From an uncultured Clostridiaceae bacterium (GTDB lineage: Bacteria; Bacillota; Clostridia; TANB77; CAG-508), in assembly GCA_948356915.1 (NCBI GenBank), contig CAOJCG010000002.1, forward strand, positions 128,484 to 192,483: 64,000 nt of DNA, in the 5' to 3' direction. Of this stretch, positions 1 through 8,160 are shown one piece after another (positions within the stretch are counted from its first letter, which is position 1; every line of letters begins with the position of its first letter). The position numbers and the translations under genes were made by a program. The notes beneath the pieces were generated by a model that saw only the letters and a list, made by a program, of their open reading frames with translations, did not search any database and had not been told where the DNA came from.

Positions 1-1
1 G

Positions 2-418
2 TATAATGCAAATGGAAAAGCAGGAATTGTATACTTTGATGATGAACAAAATGTTCGCAGCTATATTGTGGCTGAAGTTCCATTTGACATGAAAGAGAAT
101 ATGTATTTCATTAATGAGAATTATGTTATTTATGATTTTCATGATGTAAAATATCTGTATTTTAAAGGTCAATATGTTGGACAGATATGTTGGTTTAAAT
201 CAAAAACAAAGCATCCTATCTTTGTGCGTACTGATAAAGGTTTTTATATCGGACAGACTTTCTTCGATGAAAAAGGATTTTTCGATATAATGTATTTACA
301 TGTAGATTATATAAGTGATATTTGTAAATCTACAAATATCAGAAAAGTCACATTAAGGTCTGGCCCAAGAACTTACAATTTTAAGTATGATTCAAAAGTT
401 GGTAAAGTAGTAAAATAG
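2..418 (+). CDS. Hypothetical protein. The reading frame is open to the window start, so it is 5' partial; it is the first gene of the mobile element remnant.
   Basis: ORF track 68..418. The same frame has no stop back to position 2. Confidence 0.45.
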   Translation, partial: YNANGKAGIVYFDDEQNVRSYIVAEVPFDMKENMYFINENYVIYDFHDVKYLYFKGQYVGQICWFKSKTKHPIFVRTDKGFYIGQTFFDEKGFFDIMYLHVDYISDICKSTNIRKVTLRSGPRTYNFKYDSKVGKVVK

Positions 419-494
419 TAATAATGTTAGTCTATAGAGAGGACTTGAGATGTATAAATTCACATTTCAAGTTTCTCTTTTTTATTTGTCATAT

Positions 495-1682
495 TTATAA
501 ATCTAATTCTAATTCTTTTTCTCTCTCATATTCAAGTTGCTTTTTGGGGTCAATAAAAGTATGAGTTTCTTCTTCAAATTTTTTAACTAATTCTTTAGAT
601 TCTCCAATACCAAATTTGTGACAAATCCAAACTATAAACTTATCAACAGTTTCACAGAATTTATCTATTATTTTGTGCAAATGATTATTTTCCTTTTCTA
701 AACTTTTGATTTTACTTTTATATTTCCATTCAATATCAAATTCCTTTTCCTTATATTCTGCTTTAATATTGTTTATTTGATTATGAAGTTCTGTATTATC
801 AGCAAGTATGGAATCTCTTTCTTTTTGATATTTTTCTGCCTTATTAACTAAATTTACTTGTTTTGATAATTCATTATGCAATTTTAGATTTTCTTGATAC
901 AATTCCATAATTTTATCATCTTTAGGCTTAATAATTTCATCTTCTACTTTTTCTCTATTAAGTTTTATGAGTTTAATATCATTTATATTTGGTGTTTCTG
1001 GTAATTCTAGTTTTATATTATCTAATACTTTTTTAGTATTTTCAAAATTAGTCAATTTCTTTAAATCTTCTATTTTCTCGTGTTTTGCTCCAGTTTCTTC
1101 TACTGGTAATCCTCGTTTTAAATCAAAGCCTTTTGAAGTTACATATTTGTGAAAAGCATTTTGCAGTTGTCTGTAACTATCTCTGCCTTTCCAAAAATCT
1201 CTACAACATATTTTATCAATATCTTTGCCTTCTTTATCTTTTGTATGAATTACTGGTATATATACTAAATGCATGTGAGGTGTAGTTTCATCTAAATGTA
1301 CTGCTGCTGATACAATATATTTTTCACCAAGATTTTTATAATTGCATACAAATTTATAACTTTCTTTGAAATATCGTTTTGTTTCTTCTAAACCAATTTT
1401 ATTAAAAAAAGCATTATCGGAAGTAATCATCATTTCACACATGATATTGCTATTACTTCTAATAGTGCCTTTTAAATCATATTCCTTTTTCATTTTATCA
1501 AATTCTTTTATATAAGTTAGTTCATTTTTCTTACAGTAAAAATTCAAATGTGTTCTTGTAGGGTCAATATCTTTATTAGAATGACCTTTTGACCTTCTAT
1601 CATTGTGAATGTATGATCCCTGTGCATCCACTCTTGTTAATTTATCATTTCTTATAATAGCATAGCTCATATCTTCTTGCAC
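495..1682 (-). CDS. MobV/Pre-family plasmid recombination/mobilization relaxase.
   Basis: A 395-aa ORF carrying the HMHLVYIPV histidine motif typical of pMV158 MobM/Pre relaxases. The C-terminal half is coiled-coil. Confidence 0.85.
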   Translation of the reverse strand: MQEDMSYAIIRNDKLTRVDAQGSYIHNDRRSKGHSNKDIDPTRTHLNFYCKKNELTYIKEFDKMKKEYDLKGTIRSNSNIMCEMMITSDNAFFNKIGLEETKRYFKESYKFVCNYKNLGEKYIVSAAVHLDETTPHMHLVYIPVIHTKDKEGKDIDKICCRDFWKGRDSYRQLQNAFHKYVTSKGFDLKRGLPVEETGAKHEKIEDLKKLTNFENTKKVLDNIKLELPETPNINDIKLIKLNREKVEDEIIKPKDDKIMELYQENLKLHNELSKQVNLVNKAEKYQKERDSILADNTELHNQINNIKAEYKEKEFDIEWKYKSKIKSLEKENNHLHKIIDKFCETVDKFIVWICHKFGIGESKELVKKFEEETHTFIDPKKQLEYEREKELELDL

Positions 1683-1808
1683 CTCCTTCTTTGCTCAAGA
1701 TATTCTTTGAATGTCTAACATACTAGACAAACAAGTTTGTCCGTATGGCAGGGTTTTGCAACCCCACACCCCAAAACCTAAAAAATTGCTATACGCATTT
1801 TTAGGTTT

Positions 1809-1841
1809 TTCATAAAAATTTGCTTGTCGCAATTTTTATGA
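1809..1841. promoter_or_regulatory. Perfect 12-bp inverted repeat, ttcataaaaatt-N9-aatttttatgaa, upstream of mob. Candidate oriT or operator hairpin. A second inverted repeat, ggtgtaataat...attattacacc, lies at 1954-1994.
   Basis: Palindromes read directly from the sequence, positioned just 5' of the relaxase start. Confidence 0.35.
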
Positions 1842-2300
1842 ATGTGAGCAAAAAAATAAATTTTTTACTCACAACAAAAAAGCACCTATGCTTTTTTGTA
1901 TTCACTTTAGCAATTCAAAGTAGAAACCAGAGGGAGAGAGCTAAAGTGAATTAGGTGTAATAATCCCATTTGTAAAAAATAGAATTATTACACCTATATA
2001 AGCTGAAACCGTCGGTCGTTTGCCTCGTTTCATAGGTAGTCTAGTAAGTAGTAATATCACTACTATAATTGTTGATACATTTAAGTATCTTTGTTCATAC
2101 TTGCCCAAACTTTTTACAATTACAAATCCATATCAAATATGCCACCGAATACTCTTTAATTTATTGTGAGTTTTTGTTCCAAGATCTCACTTACGCACTT
2201 TGTATAATTAGACTGCTTATACAAATACGAATGGACTTTATAGCATCGGCTCATCACACCAAATAGCTTTTATAGAGGCTATTGCATTTCTCTTTGCACG

Positions 2301-2339
2301 ACAAAAAAGCCCGTTTGTAGATTTTTATTCTACAAACGG
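2301..2339 (-). terminator. Rho-independent terminator of the two-gene cargo operon.
   Basis: On the minus strand, the hairpin ccgtttgtagaataaaaatctacaaacgg is followed by cttttttgt. Confidence 0.6.
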
Positions 2340-2380
2340 ACTTTATCGCTTATATATTTAATTGTACTAGAAATTTATAA

Positions 2381-3391
2381 TTATATAAGATTATTTTTAT
2401 ATAAATTATATTTATTTTTTATATATAATCCTAATCCAATATGATTTTGATTAATTTTAATTTCTTTAGAGTTATGTCCAACATAAGTATATTCTTTAGA
2501 TGAATCCATGATATCTTGTGAATTTATATTTTTTAAATATTTGCTTTCAAAATAATCTTTTTCTTCTTCTGTATCATATTCAATAACTATTTCATTTAAA
2601 CGATTCATGGCATACACTTCTTCAGTATTGTCATAGCCTTTTTTATAATTAAAAAGGAAATTTCTTAAAATTATTTCTTTACTGTTTTTTATAAAATATT
2701 TATATTTGTAAGTATGTCCATCATAATGAATAAAACTAGATAAAGGTACAATAGTTTTTAATCTACTTGAATCTAAACATACTACTTGGGTTGAGTATAT
2801 GCAAGTTGTATTATATTTTAAAACAAGTGTATAAAATGATGTACTTTCATTTGTCATTAAATAACTATAGAATTCAGTATTATGATTATCATCATCAATT
2901 ATTTCAATCATATAACTAGGATTTTCTTTGAAATAGTAACCATCAACATTCTCCTCTTGTATTCGTTCCCAGTTATCTGCATCTCTCAAAGTATCAAATA
3001 TATATTCTAATTTATTTTTCTTTTTTAAATTGATTCTTTGTCCAAAATTATAAATTATTGTATTTTCCATTTCATCTTTCCAACTATGAAGTAACTTTAC
3101 TGTATATTTTGATTCATCACTATCTATAAGTTTTGCACAACTCTGACAAAGCCAAATACCATTATTTAAGGCTTTTCTTTCTTCTTCAGTCATATTTTTA
3201 TTGTATCTTGGTCCACCAGGAGATGCTGCACAAATATGAGAAGCTACACCAATATTATTAATAGTATGATTAGTAGCAGGACCTATTGTTAGTTTTTGAC
3301 AACTTGGGTTAGAACATATGAAAGCAACTCTTTTGGCAAGTTTTAATTTAATTATTTCTGTAAAATCATCTCTTTTATTTTTTTTCATCAT
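2381..3391 (-). CDS. HNH-like nuclease domain protein with an uncharacterised ~230-aa C-terminal extension. It is the second gene of the cargo operon.
   Basis: The N-terminus has CSNPSC...ASHICAAS...NGIWLCQSCAKLID, which fits a CxxC / H-I / N / LCxxC HNH signature. There is a 22-nt gap to the upstream gene. Confidence 0.6.
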   Translation of the reverse strand: MMKKNKRDDFTEIIKLKLAKRVAFICSNPSCQKLTIGPATNHTINNIGVASHICAASPGGPRYNKNMTEEERKALNNGIWLCQSCAKLIDSDESKYTVKLLHSWKDEMENTIIYNFGQRINLKKKNKLEYIFDTLRDADNWERIQEENVDGYYFKENPSYMIEIIDDDNHNTEFYSYLMTNESTSFYTLVLKYNTTCIYSTQVVCLDSSRLKTIVPLSSFIHYDGHTYKYKYFIKNSKEIILRNFLFNYKKGYDNTEEVYAMNRLNEIVIEYDTEEEKDYFESKYLKNINSQDIMDSSKEYTYVGHNSKEIKINQNHIGLGLYIKNKYNLYKNNLI

Positions 3392-3413
3392 ATTTTCCTC
3401 TCGTTTTATAAGT

Positions 3414-4538
3414 TTATCTCATTTTGTTAGGCCATGGCAACGGATAATGTTCACCATATTGCAAATTGTAATGTGTTATTTTTGATGTTATATTGTTCAT
3501 AATTTGAGGTGTTGAATCTTGAATAACTTTTTTTACATTGTAGTCATCATATTTGTCTTCTATATAAGTATAACTTAATAGCTTTTGATGTAATAATGTT
3601 AAAAAATCATTTACACATACATCAACAGACATAGCAATTAATGTAGATTCTTTTGAAATTTTAGGGTCAATAAAATTCTCCCATTTATGTGCATTATATC
3701 TTACCAACATTCCATAGCTCATTATCAATAAATAACAATAAAACATAAGATTAAGACAATATATACCATCTTCAAACTTATTTGGTAGTATAAGATGCTC
3801 ATTATAAAATAAACTATTTTTTATAGCATCATCATGTTCGATTTTTTCTTTTCCTTTCATATTAAAACCAATATGCAAAATATTAATTCTATCATCATAA
3901 GTTCCATGTATTCCATACTCTTCAGATATTTCTTTTCTTTGCTCAATCTGTTTAAAGTCCCCACAATACATTTCAAAATCTCCTTTACTGTTGGGGACTC
4001 TTTTGGCTACATTTGACATTTTTAATGTTGTTTTATTAAAAATATCAGATATTTCTGGAATTTGGCTTAGTAATAATTCAAATGATATTTCTTGTTTTTT
4101 TAAAACAGTATTATTAAAAAGCTTTAATATAAATGTTGGAACTCCACTTTGTTTAAGGGTAATATTTGTTTCTAAAATATTATCTTTGATATTATTATCT
4201 GAAATGCAAAAACCATGGTCTTTAAAATATTTTAACATTTCTTCATCTAAATATAGAAGATATGCCATTCCTTTAGCAAAATTATTCAAAGCATAAGAAT
4301 ATAATAATGGATTAGTAGATAAATTAGCATTTTGAGCAGATATTATAAATTCATTAGCTTGTCTAAAACAAGCTGAAGCCACTTCAGAAGAATACAAGAT
4401 TTTAGTTTCCTCACCATCTGGATATTTGTTTTTTATGTAGTTATAACAATAATTAGTTTGTTGAAATAGTTGTAAATCTGCTAAAATATCTTTTAGTGGA
4501 TTATTTGAAATTTTAGTGTTTAACATTTTTCCCTCCAT
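3414..4538 (-). CDS. Hypothetical 374-aa protein with no P-loop. It is the first gene of the cargo operon, upstream of the HNH fusion.
   Basis: ORF track. Co-oriented and tightly spaced with 2381..3391. Confidence 0.5.
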   Translation of the reverse strand: MEGKMLNTKISNNPLKDILADLQLFQQTNYCYNYIKNKYPDGEETKILYSSEVASACFRQANEFIISAQNANLSTNPLLYSYALNNFAKGMAYLLYLDEEMLKYFKDHGFCISDNNIKDNILETNITLKQSGVPTFILKLFNNTVLKKQEISFELLLSQIPEISDIFNKTTLKMSNVAKRVPNSKGDFEMYCGDFKQIEQRKEISEEYGIHGTYDDRINILHIGFNMKGKEKIEHDDAIKNSLFYNEHLILPNKFEDGIYCLNLMFYCYLLIMSYGMLVRYNAHKWENFIDPKISKESTLIAMSVDVCVNDFLTLLHQKLLSYTYIEDKYDDYNVKKVIQDSTPQIMNNITSKITHYNLQYGEHYPLPWPNKMR

Positions 4539-4777
4539 ATACTATTATTTTTTTGTATTATATCATAATTTATAAAATTTATAAATATCAATAATAAGTT
4601 AGACTGTTATTCTATCAAAAGTTCTAACATAGTTCTAACACTTAATTCAAAATTTTAGAAAAGAAATTTTTTGCTTTTTCTTGCATATTTAACAATACTT
4701 GTGCTATAATCTCCTACAGAGAAGCTAAATAGGTTAGTTATCAAAAGAGATTAATTGATGTTATCTAATGGTAAAAA

Positions 4778-4850
4778 GCAGATGGCGTAAAATTCTTAAA
4801 ATCCTGCGGTTGAATAAACCGTGCCGGTTCGATTCCGGCCATCTGCACCA
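4778..4850 (+). tRNA. tRNA-like element. It has a 7-bp acceptor stem (GCAGATG/CATCTGC), a canonical T-arm (GCCGG TTCGATT CCGGC), a discriminator and an encoded CCA, but no convincing D-arm. It may be a degenerate tRNA or an att-site remnant.
   Basis: ggttcgattccggccatctgcacca is read directly from the sequence. The 5' complement gcagatggc lies 70 nt upstream, and a terminator follows. Confidence 0.35.
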
Positions 4851-4852
4851 TG

Positions 4853-4893
4853 GGAGAGTAAGGAAATAGCAATTTTCTTACTCTCTTTTTTTC
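4853..4893 (+). terminator. Rho-independent terminator after the tRNA-like element.
   Basis: Hairpin gagagtaagg...cttactctc followed by a T7 run. Confidence 0.6.
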
Positions 4894-4936
4894 TTTATTA
4901 TTTCCATTTTTGCTAATGTTTTGCTAATCTAATTTA

Positions 4937-5700
4937 TTAACTTGTTTTTAAAAATATATCAAAATTATTGGCTAGTTCTTTATTAGTTGCCTCATATATA
5001 TGTGAGTATAAGTCCATTGTTATACTTATATTGCTATGCCCTAACCTTGTTGAAATTGCTTTTGCTGAAACTCCTTGTGCTAATAGTAGTGACGCGTGAG
5101 AATGTCTTAAATCGTGAAAACGTATATGTGGCAAGTTGTTATCTTCTAGTATTTGTTTAAATTTATGATTTAAACTACTAGGGCTTATAATAGAGCCGTC
5201 TTCTAGTGTACAAACGAATTCACTTTTATTTTTCTGCTTTTCCTTATACTCTTTTAATATTTCTATTAACGTTGGTGGCATACTTATATTACGCACACTG
5301 GTTTTAGTCTTTGTATTTCGTTACTATCAAAAACAGTTGCATTATATCTTTGCTTTTTTGGTACTTCTACGTTATCTGCAATATTTCTAATTACGAAATT
5401 CCATTTCATTGCTTTATTTAATGCTGAATGTATAATTCTATGAATATATACAATAGTTGTATTAGAAAGTTCCTTGATTAATTAGTTATAAAAATTTTGT
5501 AATTGCAGTGGTAGTAATTTATCCAACTTTATATTACCTAAATTTGGTATTATATATTTGTCAAAGTTTCTTCTGTAAATTCAGCAAAAAGAATAAATTT
5601 TCTGAAGCACTTGTTAATTGGTGATATATGGTAATTGTTCGTTTTAGTGAGACTGCAATACTTTTTGAAAATTCCCACTAAAAAATAGCTTTATTTTATT
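4937..5700 (-). pseudogene. Tyrosine recombinase/integrase, decayed. The C-terminal 119 aa are intact (HDLRHSHAS...LGHS...Y). The N-terminal parts are recognisable in two other frames.
   Basis: ORF 4937..5296 has the R-H-R-Y catalytic-domain signature. Reverse-complement translation of 5297-5700 gives integrase-like segments (IVYIHRIIHSALNKAMKWNF..., YHISPINKCFRKF...) separated by frameshifts. Confidence 0.7.
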
Positions 5701-5868
5701 GTTATTTACTTGATATTATATAAGGTTATTTTCAAAAAATCTTGCTTATTTCTAACTCTCTTGGATAGCTTGTGCTTCTCTATGTGGTTAGCTATATATA
5801 CCTTCACTTTGGGCTTTCACCATTTAGTCAAATGGCATGCCTGCCATACACTCTAATAGAACAAAAGG

Positions 5869-6063
5869 CTAGTTCCTTCCTTCTTCTTTTTCTATCCTTT
5901 TTGTTATCATTTTTAGTGCTTTATGTCTTTCTAACATTATTACATGTGAGCATCCTAAGCATTTTAGTTTAAAGTCTACTCCTACTCTTGTTATTTCCCA
6001 TAATTTGCTTCCACATGGATGTTGTTTTTTTGTTCTTACTATATCTCCTATGTTATATTCCAT
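5869..6063 (-). CDS. DUF951-family small protein.
   Basis: The 64-aa MEYNIGDIVRTKKQHPCGSKLWEI...CLGCSH sequence matches the conserved Firmicutes DUF951 pattern. Confidence 0.65.
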   Translation of the reverse strand: MEYNIGDIVRTKKQHPCGSKLWEITRVGVDFKLKCLGCSHVIMLERHKALKMITKRIEKEEGRN

Positions 6064-6114
6064 AATTTTTACCTCTATTTTTGACTTCTAAAATCTGTAA
6101 TCATATGTCAGATG

Positions 6115-6168
6115 CTAGGGTAGTTTCTTCGAAGAACGGGTCGCCGAAGGCGGCGACCCCTACATACG
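6115..6168. repeat. CCCCTACA-family unit ctagggtagtttcttcgaagaacgggtcgccgaaggcggcgacccctaca, with a GC hairpin on a GAAG tetraloop.
   Basis: Homologous to 40855-40913 and 15481-15536. Confidence 0.55.
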
Positions 6169-6193
6169 ATTTCTTTTCCCTTAATTCTGACTT

Positions 6194-7843
6194 TTATTTC
6201 ATTGCTTCTTCGAAACGTTTAAATATTCTTTCCTTACCTAATACTTGCATTATTTCATACATGTCTGGTGTGTTTGCTTTTGAGGTTAGTGCTACTCTTA
6301 GTACTGTGCTTATATCTCCTACATGGCCTGGCCATTTTTCTGGTTCTTTTTTCCATTCTTTTACTTCTCTTGCAAAGCCTACTTCTTCTGCTAAGTCTTT
6401 TATTTTGTCGAACCATGTTTGTTTGTCGTCATTTTCATTATAATATTTTTCCATGTATAATTTTACTATTTTATTTATTAATTCTTTGTCTGTTACTTTT
6501 TGATATTCGTATGTTCTTTCTTTTGCATAGAATTCATCATCATACATGTATTCTATATTTTCTTTTACATCTGACCATTTTGCTATGTCTTTTCTTGGTT
6601 TTGCATTTCCTCTTTCTATTCCAAATACTTTTAGGGCATATTCTTTGTCTTCTAATAATTTATATAGTTCTTCGTCATATATTTTTGCCCAGTTAACTGC
6701 TTCTTCATATATACTTTCAGCTGTATATTTTGATATTACTGTTTTTGCTATGTCTAATATTTTTACTATATCAAATAATGCTCCACTTACACTCATTTTG
6801 TTTAGTTGTAGTTCAAATTCATCTACAGAGGCACTTGGGTTTTGTTTTCTCCATAGTTCGAAGTTTGAATTTGCTATATTTAGTAAGTATTCTGTTACTG
6901 CTTCTTTTGGTACACCTATTTCTGTATAGTAACTTACTGCTGCTTCTGGGTCTTTACGTTTGCTTAGCTTACGTTTTCCACCATCATCTTCTTTCATTAT
7001 TGGTGCTATGTGTGCGTATTTAGGTGCTTTAAATTCTAACATTTGGAATAATTGTAAGTGTAGTGGTACTGATGATAGCCATTCGTCTCCACGTATTACA
7101 TGTGTTGTTCCCATTAGGTGGTCATCTACTGCGTGTGCAAAATGATATGTTGGAAGACCATCTGCTTTTATTATTACTATATCTTGGTCATTTTCTGGAA
7201 AGTCTACATTTCCTTTTATTACATCATGATGTTTTATTTTTCTATCTTCTCTGCCAGGTGATTTTAAACGAATTATATATTGTTCTCCATTCTTTATTTT
7301 TTCGATAGCTTCTTCTATGCTCAAATTTCTATATTTTGCCCATACTCCATAATATCCTGGACGTATTTTAGCTAGCTCTTGTTTTGCTCTCATTTCGTCT
7401 AATTCTTCTGGAGTAGCAAAACATGGGTATGCTTTGCCTTGTTCTAATAAATACTTAGCATAAGCCTGGTATATATCTTTTCTTAAAGATTGTTTGTATG
7501 GTCCATATTCTCCTATTTCTTCTGTTTCATTTATCATTCCTTCATCAGGAGTTAAGCCAAAGTCTCTTAATGATTCTATTATTCCTGTTACCCCATTTTC
7601 TACTTCTCTTTTTTGGTCTGTATCTTCTACTCTTAAAAAGAATACTCCTCCTGTTTGTTTTGCCATTTTTCTTGCTATTACTACTTGGTATAGTGAACCT
7701 AAGTGTACAAAACCTGTTGGACTTGGCGCAAACCTTGTTACTATTGCTCCTTCTTCTAAGTTTCTTTTTTTATATTTTTCTTCATAATATGAAATTTCCT
7801 TTACATCTGGAAATATTAAATTGGCTAAATCTTTATAATCCAT
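6194..7843 (-). CDS. gltX: Glutamate--tRNA ligase (class I aaRS, GluRS/GlnRS family, long clostridial form).
   Basis: RFAPSPTGFVHLG (HIGH-type motif), KLSKR (KMSKS motif) and HVIRGDEW are all present. Confidence 0.85.
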   Translation of the reverse strand: MDYKDLANLIFPDVKEISYYEEKYKKRNLEEGAIVTRFAPSPTGFVHLGSLYQVVIARKMAKQTGGVFFLRVEDTDQKREVENGVTGIIESLRDFGLTPDEGMINETEEIGEYGPYKQSLRKDIYQAYAKYLLEQGKAYPCFATPEELDEMRAKQELAKIRPGYYGVWAKYRNLSIEEAIEKIKNGEQYIIRLKSPGREDRKIKHHDVIKGNVDFPENDQDIVIIKADGLPTYHFAHAVDDHLMGTTHVIRGDEWLSSVPLHLQLFQMLEFKAPKYAHIAPIMKEDDGGKRKLSKRKDPEAAVSYYTEIGVPKEAVTEYLLNIANSNFELWRKQNPSASVDEFELQLNKMSVSGALFDIVKILDIAKTVISKYTAESIYEEAVNWAKIYDEELYKLLEDKEYALKVFGIERGNAKPRKDIAKWSDVKENIEYMYDDEFYAKERTYEYQKVTDKELINKIVKLYMEKYYNENDDKQTWFDKIKDLAEEVGFAREVKEWKKEPEKWPGHVGDISTVLRVALTSKANTPDMYEIMQVLGKERIFKRFEEAMK

Positions 7844-8160
7844 AATTTTCTCCTTCTTTCTTTTTCCTAGCTATTATAACAAATTTTAGTTTATACTTCA
7901 AGATATATAGTATTTAAGTTTTGATATTTTAAAAAAAATATTGAAACTTAGAATATAGTACACTTTTAATTCTCTATTTTTTACTTTTCATTTTAACCCT
8001 TTTATCTATTATAACTTTATATTATACTTTCCTTATTTTGTTTATTATTGCGTCTTTATTTTACATATTTTAATATTTCCTCTCTATGTAGTTAGCAATA
8101 TATATATCAGTCATTGAATTTCGATAATTATATAAACCTTCCTGCCACACCGAAACAAAA

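Follow-up and report, generated by a model that had tools for sequence, protein, structure and literature searches.

Two neighbouring genes in a 64,000-nucleotide stretch of DNA from an uncultured Clostridiaceae bacterium (GenBank assembly GCA_948356915.1, contig CAOJCG010000002.1, positions 128,484 to 192,483; the whole stretch is referred to as the window) raise the question of whether they form a dedicated two-gene immune system, or are separate passengers of the same mobile element. An initial annotation, made from the sequence alone, had described them as two co-oriented genes 22 nt apart. This is exact, and the layout is operon-like, with a ribosome-binding site, GAGAGGAAAA, ahead of the ATG of the second gene:

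3414..4538, minus strand: YaaC-family gene, 374 aa
2381..3391, minus strand: HNH-headed gene, 336 aa

Both open reading frames (ORFs) are taken as real genes, since dozens of full-length homologs were found for each, and their alignments contain strongly conserved columns. With moderate confidence, we read the locus as two separate, individually exchangeable genes of immune-type cargo, the second of which would encode an HNH effector plus sensor acting by abortive DNA cutting. The dedicated two-gene system envisaged in the initial annotation is not borne out, as the pair is found in one element lineage only and the neighbours of the homologs vary.

The presence or absence of the second gene is directly observed in sister copies of the element. 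A hidden Markov model (HMM) search of the fetched loci (designated L) and the window identified a YaaC gene directly upstream of an HNH gene only in the window and in L018, L019, L030 and L031, and all of these pairs lie on one MobV element lineage. Four sister elements (L027, L028, L029 and L032) contain an intact YaaC gene, coding for 372-374 aa and showing 91-97% nucleotide identity, without an HNH ORF. When the window is compared with them by blastn, homology extends from 4850 to 3411 and starts again at 2363, the two blocks being separated by about 5 nt; the sequence at the empty site is ...GAGATAAACTATTTTAATTTAATATTAACG.... What separates filled and empty alleles is a cassette located between the YaaC stop codon and a terminator shared by the two genes:

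2364..3410, minus strand: HNH cassette, 1047 bp, composed of ribosome-binding site, ORF and, 3' of the latter, about 18-25 nt
2306..2344, minus strand: intrinsic terminator common to both genes, with a 16-bp stem containing 6 GC pairs and a T-run

The terminator had been correctly noticed in the initial annotation, but placed at 2301-2339. It is retained in filled and empty sites, and in the HNH-less sister elements is found directly 3' of YaaC. In the preferred reading, the two genes are co-transcribed only because the HNH gene lies between the YaaC stop codon and the terminator, and YaaC functions, or at least persists, alone. Lack of co-conservation had been named from the start as the result that would speak against a paired system, and the four sister elements without HNH provide it.

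The history of the cassette also differs from that of its surroundings. The YaaC gene of the window is 97% identical to those of the HNH-less L027, L028 and L032, and 87% identical to those of L018/L031, which carry the HNH gene closest to that of the window (93%). For L030 the identities to the window are 92% for YaaC and 81% for HNH. The cassette is thus incongruent with the phylogeny of the flanking genes, which implies at least two events of gain, loss or recombination.

The nature of the HNH-headed protein is the second part of the answer. It is divided into two domains:

3038..3391, minus strand: HNH domain (beta-beta-alpha-Me, Zn-finger), residues about 1-118, of the Cap5/SPARHA type, with an H-N-[A/S] motif
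2384..3037, minus strand: C-terminal domain of about 220 aa, residues about 119-336, common to the PDC-S50 family

The region of about 230 aa which follows the nuclease signature had been considered devoid of recognisable domains. The C-terminal two-thirds of the protein match the PADLOC model PDC-S50 (PDLC05032) at 1.4e-35, with residues 119-332 aligned on positions 166-382 of the 387 of the profile, and also match phrog_29016. A motif W..P..LDGGR..P is conserved in the HNH protein and in PDC-S50. The predicted structure consists of a beta-sheet followed by a helical bundle, with a predicted local distance difference test score (pLDDT) mostly above 90; no Pfam match and no solved structural relative were found for this domain, and comparison of its profile with PDB sequences produced chance-level matches only. 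A profile search of 1.84 billion representative sequences retrieved 291 clusters containing the C-domain, 133 of them at E<=1e-10. Their members are mostly 370-400 aa long, with the domain at about 165-380, and HNH-headed proteins account for only two of the 291.

Swapping of the N-terminal head is observed throughout this family. In a Pfam census of 104 members, a SLFN_AlbA_2 head was present in 74, a TIR head in 3-4, and other fusions were found once each. A bona fide PDC-S50 protein from Alkalibacillus (L026), with AlbA_2 and C-domain and a match of 8e-125 to the model, shows 34% identity to the HNH protein. On sequenced plasmids, AlbA_2-headed members are monocistronic and annotated as 'ATP-binding proteins'; one of them adjoins a type I-C CRISPR-Cas locus. 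The 336-aa protein does not have the full PDC-S50 architecture, being without an AlbA_2 match and covering the C-terminal part of the profile only. As is proper to a single-gene family, no constant partner was observed: neighbours are variable, short relatives are solitary and plasmid members are monocistronic. Judged from its sequence, the 336-aa protein is an HNH-headed variant of PDC-S50, itself a computational single-gene candidate, and the locus matches a described candidate to this extent, through the C-domain of one of its proteins. No published function was found in the literature for PDC-S50 or PDC-M68. Immune proteins consisting of a single polypeptide are usually built in this way, from a constant C-terminal module with a sensing or regulatory function and swappable nuclease- or NADase-type heads which do the killing; the C-domain is presumed to be a sensor, or a regulatory or oligomerisation module.

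The HNH head shows the beta-beta-alpha-Me fold with a structural Zn site, and its closest structures are Cap5 and SPARHA. Residues C26, C31, H52, N77, C82, C85, D90 and D92 are invariant across 41 homologs of the protein. The HNH signature reported initially is thus sound as regards H52, N77 and the Zn cysteines, but the first cysteine pair (C26..C31) is CX4C and not CxxC, and the position of the third histidine is occupied by A86 (codon at 3134-3136 of the window). The best PDB sequence match of the head is 9OM4, the HNH-APAZ effector of the SPARHA short prokaryotic Argonaute (pAgo) system, and its PADLOC matches are CBASS endonuclease effectors, SAVED_HNH, PDC-M68A and some SduA N-termini (2e-8). 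In the HMMER alignment, H46, N71, H79 and H80 of AcaSPARHA correspond to H52, N77, C85 and A86. The general-base histidine (H46) and the structural asparagine (N71) have their counterparts in H52 and N77; A86 pairs with H80, and with the second histidine of the Cap5 'EHH', so that the third histidine is missing. An N71A/H80A mutant of AcaSPARHA is inactive (PMC12738770). The HNH motif is therefore not fully intact, though it goes beyond a mere Zn-finger; D90 and D92, situated one turn further along the helix, may serve as substitute metal ligands.

The 374-aa protein could not initially be assigned to any family. It belongs to Pfam YaaC (PF14175), with a score of 84.1 bits against a cutoff of 27 and a match to positions 2-307 of the 307 of the profile, and the same family is carried by 74 of its 74 homologs. 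In the AlphaFold2 model, built with 43 homologs (pLDDT 91.8, predicted template-modelling score 0.85), the best structural matches are HEPN domains. The four-helix HEPN core fold is present, and is split by an alpha/beta insertion of about 150 residues (about 100-260); as modelled, the helical core of YaaC is HEPN-like. The alignment of the 43 homologs lacks the canonical Rx4-6H RNase motif of HEPN and shows instead an invariant R280-Y281, followed by N282-x-[H/N/D]284, with Rx3H spacing and a histidine that is not conserved. Residues conserved in the family are R59/Q60, H108-G-F and R280-Y-N-x-[H/N/D]-x-W. YaaC is not on the list of the 2013 HEPN survey (PMC3710099). No functional information was found in the literature on YaaC, PF14175 or B. 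subtilis yaaC, and NCBIfam provided nothing useful for either protein. Comparison of the YaaC profile with PDB sequences yielded chance-level matches only, and no match to the protein was found in IMG/VR, in plasmids or in phages. Most tentatively of all, YaaC might be a stand-alone HEPN-fold protein of immunity or conflict, whose active site is non-canonical or whose role is not catalytic.

The neighbours of the homologs of both genes were then compared. HNH homologs at 47-70% identity adjoin an ApeA-like protein, an Avs4-like SMEK_N-STAND protein, GajAB, or an ORF of either 100 or 153 aa. In the first context, the HNH gene follows a gene for an ApeA-like protein of 476-478 aa, whose homologs hit ApeA_NTD1 above cutoff and HEPN_Apea weakly; other ApeA-like homologs are found without an HNH gene. 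The possibility that the 478-aa partner is a diverged YaaC was ruled out by BLASTP and hhalign, neither of which detected any relation. In these ApeA-like loci (L001:8007-10063, also L002-L005, and L006:8007-8561) the HNH gene overlaps by 11 nt a gene for a dCMP/MafB19-type deaminase. The deaminase gene is followed by SDR, a 114-aa ORF and Ser_hydrolase. Large serine recombinases enclose the whole block, which may represent a larger multi-gene cargo unit.

In the second context, the HNH gene is in operon with a gene for a 1572-aa SMEK_N-STAND protein, which matches PADLOC Avs4 at about 3e-36 and is a distant match to the annotated E. coli Avs4. The order is HNH to STAND in L022-L025 and L060-L062, and STAND to HNH in L010 (blocks L022:5671-11405 and L010:1453-7220). 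The block common to four metagenome-assembled genomes (MAGs; L022-L025) consists of exactly HNH and STAND, with differing flanks, and the association is kept, with inverted order, at about 47% (HNH) and 51% (STAND) protein identity. Among the associations of the HNH protein, this is perhaps the only one that is truly conserved. In one of the four (L025:5866-6683) a frameshift has broken the HNH gene into pieces of 195 aa and 77 aa, next to an intact SMEK_N-STAND gene.

In the remaining contexts, the HNH gene follows Gabija GajA/GajB (L021), a 100-aa ORF within a conjugative element, or a 153-aa ORF beside an integrase fragment. In the conjugative element (L008, about 8040-8075) a sequence resembling the start of a tRNA gene, GGGGCTGTAGCTCAATTGGTAGAGCA, is found right after the HNH stop codon. 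HNH relatives of 264-267 aa are solitary among housekeeping genes. One of them, 267 aa long, from a Chloroflexi MAG (L049:5001-7864), precedes a 68-aa PALP fragment, behind which there is a full-length PALP gene, and this arrangement could be an insertion scar.

YaaC homologs (33-48% identity) have as neighbours HTH proteins, a MutH-like nuclease, a metallophosphatase, resolvases, a Zn-finger protein, UvrD and proteins of unknown function, and are often located in islands with type ISP restriction-modification (R-M), PDC-M46, McrB-like genes and Fic. In L011-L015 (7139-8342) and L046 (6138-7342), a YaaC homolog of about 45% identity precedes two unknown genes (228-230 aa and 172 aa) that are conserved as a pair, and a tyrosine integrase gene adjoins; the cargo upstream varies (Fic, nSTAND, type ISP R-M, AAA_15/RloB), and the locus looks like a defence hotspot. 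The 230-aa, 172-aa and 239-aa genes found beside YaaC homologs gave no PADLOC match, no significant Pfam match and no match to the HMMs of the HNH protein or the C-domain, and were rejected as relatives of the HNH protein. In L033 (1820-4323) the YaaC homolog overlaps by 4 nt an upstream gene for a 465-aa protein with a MutH/Sau3AI-type nuclease domain, another juxtaposition of HEPN fold and DNase. All together, the defence genes recognised near HNH or YaaC homologs include Gabija, Avs4-like, GmrSD, Eco57I-type R-M, RloB/AbiL, PDC-M46, type ISP R-M and McrB-like genes. Their abundance agrees with the initial view of the locus as cargo in a defence-like context.

By analogy with the effectors that share its head, the HNH protein is probably a DNase, controlled by a sensor, that aborts infection. 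We infer a defence role in which the trigger would be an infection cue sensed by the C-domain, or the C-domain would itself drive oligomerisation; activation would result from bringing HNH heads together, as in Cap5 and SPARHA, and the nuclease activity so produced would lead to indiscriminate DNA cutting, with abortive infection or exclusion of competing elements as the outcome. In both Cap5 and SPARHA, tetramerisation through an N-terminal helix makes the active site, and collateral cleavage of double-stranded DNA follows (PMC12738770).

Several points weigh against this interpretation. The residue equivalent to H80 is Ala or Ser in all of the 113 homologs in which the HNH domain was matched, the site being C[A/S] in 111 and H[A/S] in 2; DNA cutting by the head is for this reason predicted only. 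On the other side of the same count, a residue so constant marks H-N-[A/S] as a conserved subfamily and not a decayed copy, and the Ala/Ser-bearing homologs (set P0001-P0120) include TIR-, DnaB_C- and SAVED-fused proteins. The family is rare, with 9 loci in 185,579 species genomes, and about 10 distinct HNH contexts were sampled. The HNH gene always abuts another gene and has no evident promoter of its own. It recurs beside two HEPN families and one STAND family, at 47-65% identity and in both orders, and such recurrent HEPN and STAND neighbours could reflect functional coupling, not mere clustering in islands. Finally, no experimental test of the PDC-S50 family, of the HNH variant or of the YaaC subfamily was found in the literature.

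The last of the contextual points lead to the alternative that survives best, although we consider it unlikely: a cooperative system, in which an upstream immune protein (the YaaC-HEPN protein here, an ApeA-like HEPN or SMEK-STAND protein elsewhere) works together with the HNH protein, the latter being either a plug-in second effector or a DNase that activates the HEPN partner through the products of DNA breakdown. The operons are tight, with gaps of 22-28 nt or overlaps, and lack a separate promoter for HNH; the HNH-STAND unit is a discrete block in four MAGs and recurs reversed at about 47-51% identity; and two unrelated HEPN-type partners recur, YaaC and ApeA-like. Repeated associations of HEPN with HNH or other DNases are reported in the HEPN survey (PMC3710099), and for one ApeA the activators are 5'-phosphorylated deoxydinucleotides, such as arise when DNA is degraded (bioRxiv 10.64898/2026.01.26.701840). 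These observations are opposed by the separability of the genes: four sister elements have an intact YaaC and no HNH, ApeA-like homologs, too, are found with no HNH gene, HNH occurs alone or with unrelated small ORFs, the STAND gene of L025 is intact beside a broken HNH gene, and the C-domain family is overwhelmingly monocistronic. Moreover, the supposed partners have effectors of their own. ApeA is a single-gene abortive-infection tRNase (bioRxiv 10.64898/2026.01.26.701840), and SMEK is itself a nuclease domain (PMC10810196), a description on account of which SMEK_N was rejected as an adaptor requiring an effector in trans.

A looser form of coupling is regarded as less probable still: the protein made of HNH head and C-domain would be a portable plug-in, able to couple functionally with any immune protein next to which it happens to land. 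It is possible that its DNase products (e.g. 5'-phosphorylated deoxydinucleotides) activate a neighbouring HEPN protein, either YaaC or ApeA-like, and equally possible that it is recruited in trans as a second effector by an Avs4-like STAND protein. Were such a plug-in real, it would reveal a two-stage immune cascade, from DNase to RNase, built from interchangeable cassettes, and would provide a first functional handle on the YaaC family.

That the cassette is selfish, i.e. encodes a free-standing homing endonuclease with a DNA-binding C-domain, copying itself into the site 3' of YaaC and into others, seems to us improbable. Precise presence or absence at an identical site in diverged element lineages, with homologous flanks on both sides, the incongruence between cassette and flanking phylogenies, and the location of a promoterless cassette inside operons of other genes are all as expected of homing. 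Homologous recombination among mosaic element copies, however, explains the pattern of insertions and deletions equally well. No target-site duplication and no conserved cassette termini were found, nor was there similarity of target sites across contexts. For a homing protein, it would make no sense that the C-domain is also joined to TIR and Schlafen/AlbA_2 heads, and the head is of the Cap5/SPARHA immune-effector type, without the third histidine. The habitat is not that of phages, introns or inteins: viral contigs of IMG/VR contained no match to the C-domain or to the HNH protein, and phage records matched the N-terminal HNH head only, with no full-length relative. Overlap of HNH with downstream genes in L001 and L006 suggests, in addition, long residence at those sites.

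An addiction or toxin-antitoxin module stabilising the element, with HNH as toxin and YaaC as antidote or the reverse, is very improbable: a two-gene operon on a mobile element with one nuclease-type head would suit it, and MazEF adjoins ApeA-like genes elsewhere, so that such cargo regions do hold toxin-antitoxin modules, but each gene occurs without the other in close relatives, YaaC with its 374 aa is far larger than typical antitoxins, and no toxin-antitoxin family was matched in Pfam, NCBIfam or PADLOC.

Two separate, exchangeable cargo genes therefore remain our preferred reading, and the element that carries them can be outlined from the following features:

495..1682, minus strand: MobV-type relaxase (Mob_Pre; Pfam PF01076, 1.6e-39), downstream of the pair
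4806..4850, plus strand: 45-nt fragment resembling the 3' end of tmRNA (ssrA; Rfam RF00023, 22 bits, E 4.9e-6, a score below the gathering score)
4937..5296, minus strand: C-terminal fragment of a tyrosine integrase (Pfam Phage_integrase, 2.2e-17, positions 67-170 of the 172 of the profile)
4557..4618, minus strand: promoter-like sigma-70 sites upstream of the YaaC gene

A Mob_Pre relaxase homolog is present in L018, L019, L027, L028, L030 and L031, and the closest relatives of the element are found in MAGs of uncultured gut Clostridia. The block of homology common to the sister elements extends from about 4850 to about 494 of the window, and its edge coincides with the ssrA-like fragment. The fragment fits, by its sequence, an ssrA-type attachment (att) remnant marking the edge of the element; a remnant had been seen initially but taken for tRNA-like, while its best match is the tmRNA 3' end. 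ARAGORN called no tRNA or tmRNA gene across the 64-kb window. The YaaC and HNH genes are cargo of a MobV integrative mobilizable element at this ssrA-type att remnant. Of the flanks described initially, the MobV relaxase and the interrupted integrase were both found, but the integrase fragment may belong to a neighbouring decayed element, since it lies outside the homology block of the sister elements. Upstream of it, N-terminal remains are readable and interrupted by stops, and the position of the decayed integrase on the far side of the ssrA-like fragment suggests two elements in tandem.

The ORFs found within positions 1-6300 of the window are those of the relaxase, YaaC, HNH and the integrase fragment. 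The promoter-like sites upstream of YaaC comprise the hexamer pairs TTGATA-16-TATTAT, TTGATA-18-TATGAT and TTTATA-17-TATAAT, the last of the three with an extended TG. They are no more than matches to the consensus, and such sites are not more numerous in the region than chance would give. On this sequence basis, both genes are probably driven from them. Past the decayed integrase, the first apparent host gene is a small DUF951 gene (5869-6063, minus strand), beyond which gltX-like, RNase J and uvrC genes are found.

Neither gene is categorically new, YaaC being a Pfam family and the HNH protein a rare head-swap variant of PDC-S50. What is new here is the HNH-headed variant, the census of head swaps and the HEPN-like fold of YaaC, as well as the conserved H-N-[A/S] subfamily of HNH domains and the natural filled and empty alleles. 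If the preferred reading is true, an HNH-headed form is added to the candidate single-gene defence family PDC-S50, and its C-domain, which carries Schlafen/AlbA_2, TIR and HNH heads, is a good target in the search for a new infection-sensing module. Pfam YaaC, a long-standing uncharacterised family, is seen here to possess a HEPN-like core and to travel as cargo of mobile elements and defence islands. The filled and empty alleles are a natural experiment, by which the contribution of each gene can be separated and the swapping of defence cassettes shown, and the conservation of H-N-[A/S] poses the question of how, or whether, these heads bind a catalytic metal. The locus is, on the whole, a reasonable, not an exceptional, experimental target.

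With respect to known systems, HNH nucleases are used in defence by Septu (PtuA/PtuB), Zorya II and Shedu. All three were rejected for this locus, where the PtuA ATPase, ZorAB and the DUF4263 nuclease domain were not found, in agreement with the initial exclusion of Septu and Zorya II. Cap5 (HNH-SAVED) and the HNH-APAZ protein of SPARHA share the HNH head with the 336-aa protein, but only about 111-131 of its residues align to Cap5, no SAVED or APAZ match was obtained, and neither a CD-NTase nor a pAgo gene is present in the window operon; membership in CBASS or in the short-pAgo systems was rejected, as their defining partners and domains are absent. With PDC-S50 the protein shares the C-domain of about 220 aa and the habit of occurring both stand-alone and near other defence genes; the difference lies in the head, which is Schlafen/AlbA_2 there and HNH here. 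YaaC shares its fold with the HEPN superfamily, but lacks the Rx4-6H motif and contains the insertion of about 150 aa. ApeA-like and Avs4-like proteins, which take the place of YaaC beside the HNH gene in other genomes, are both absent from the window, and the two window genes resemble ApeA and Avs4 in being, likewise, cargo of defence islands and mobile elements.

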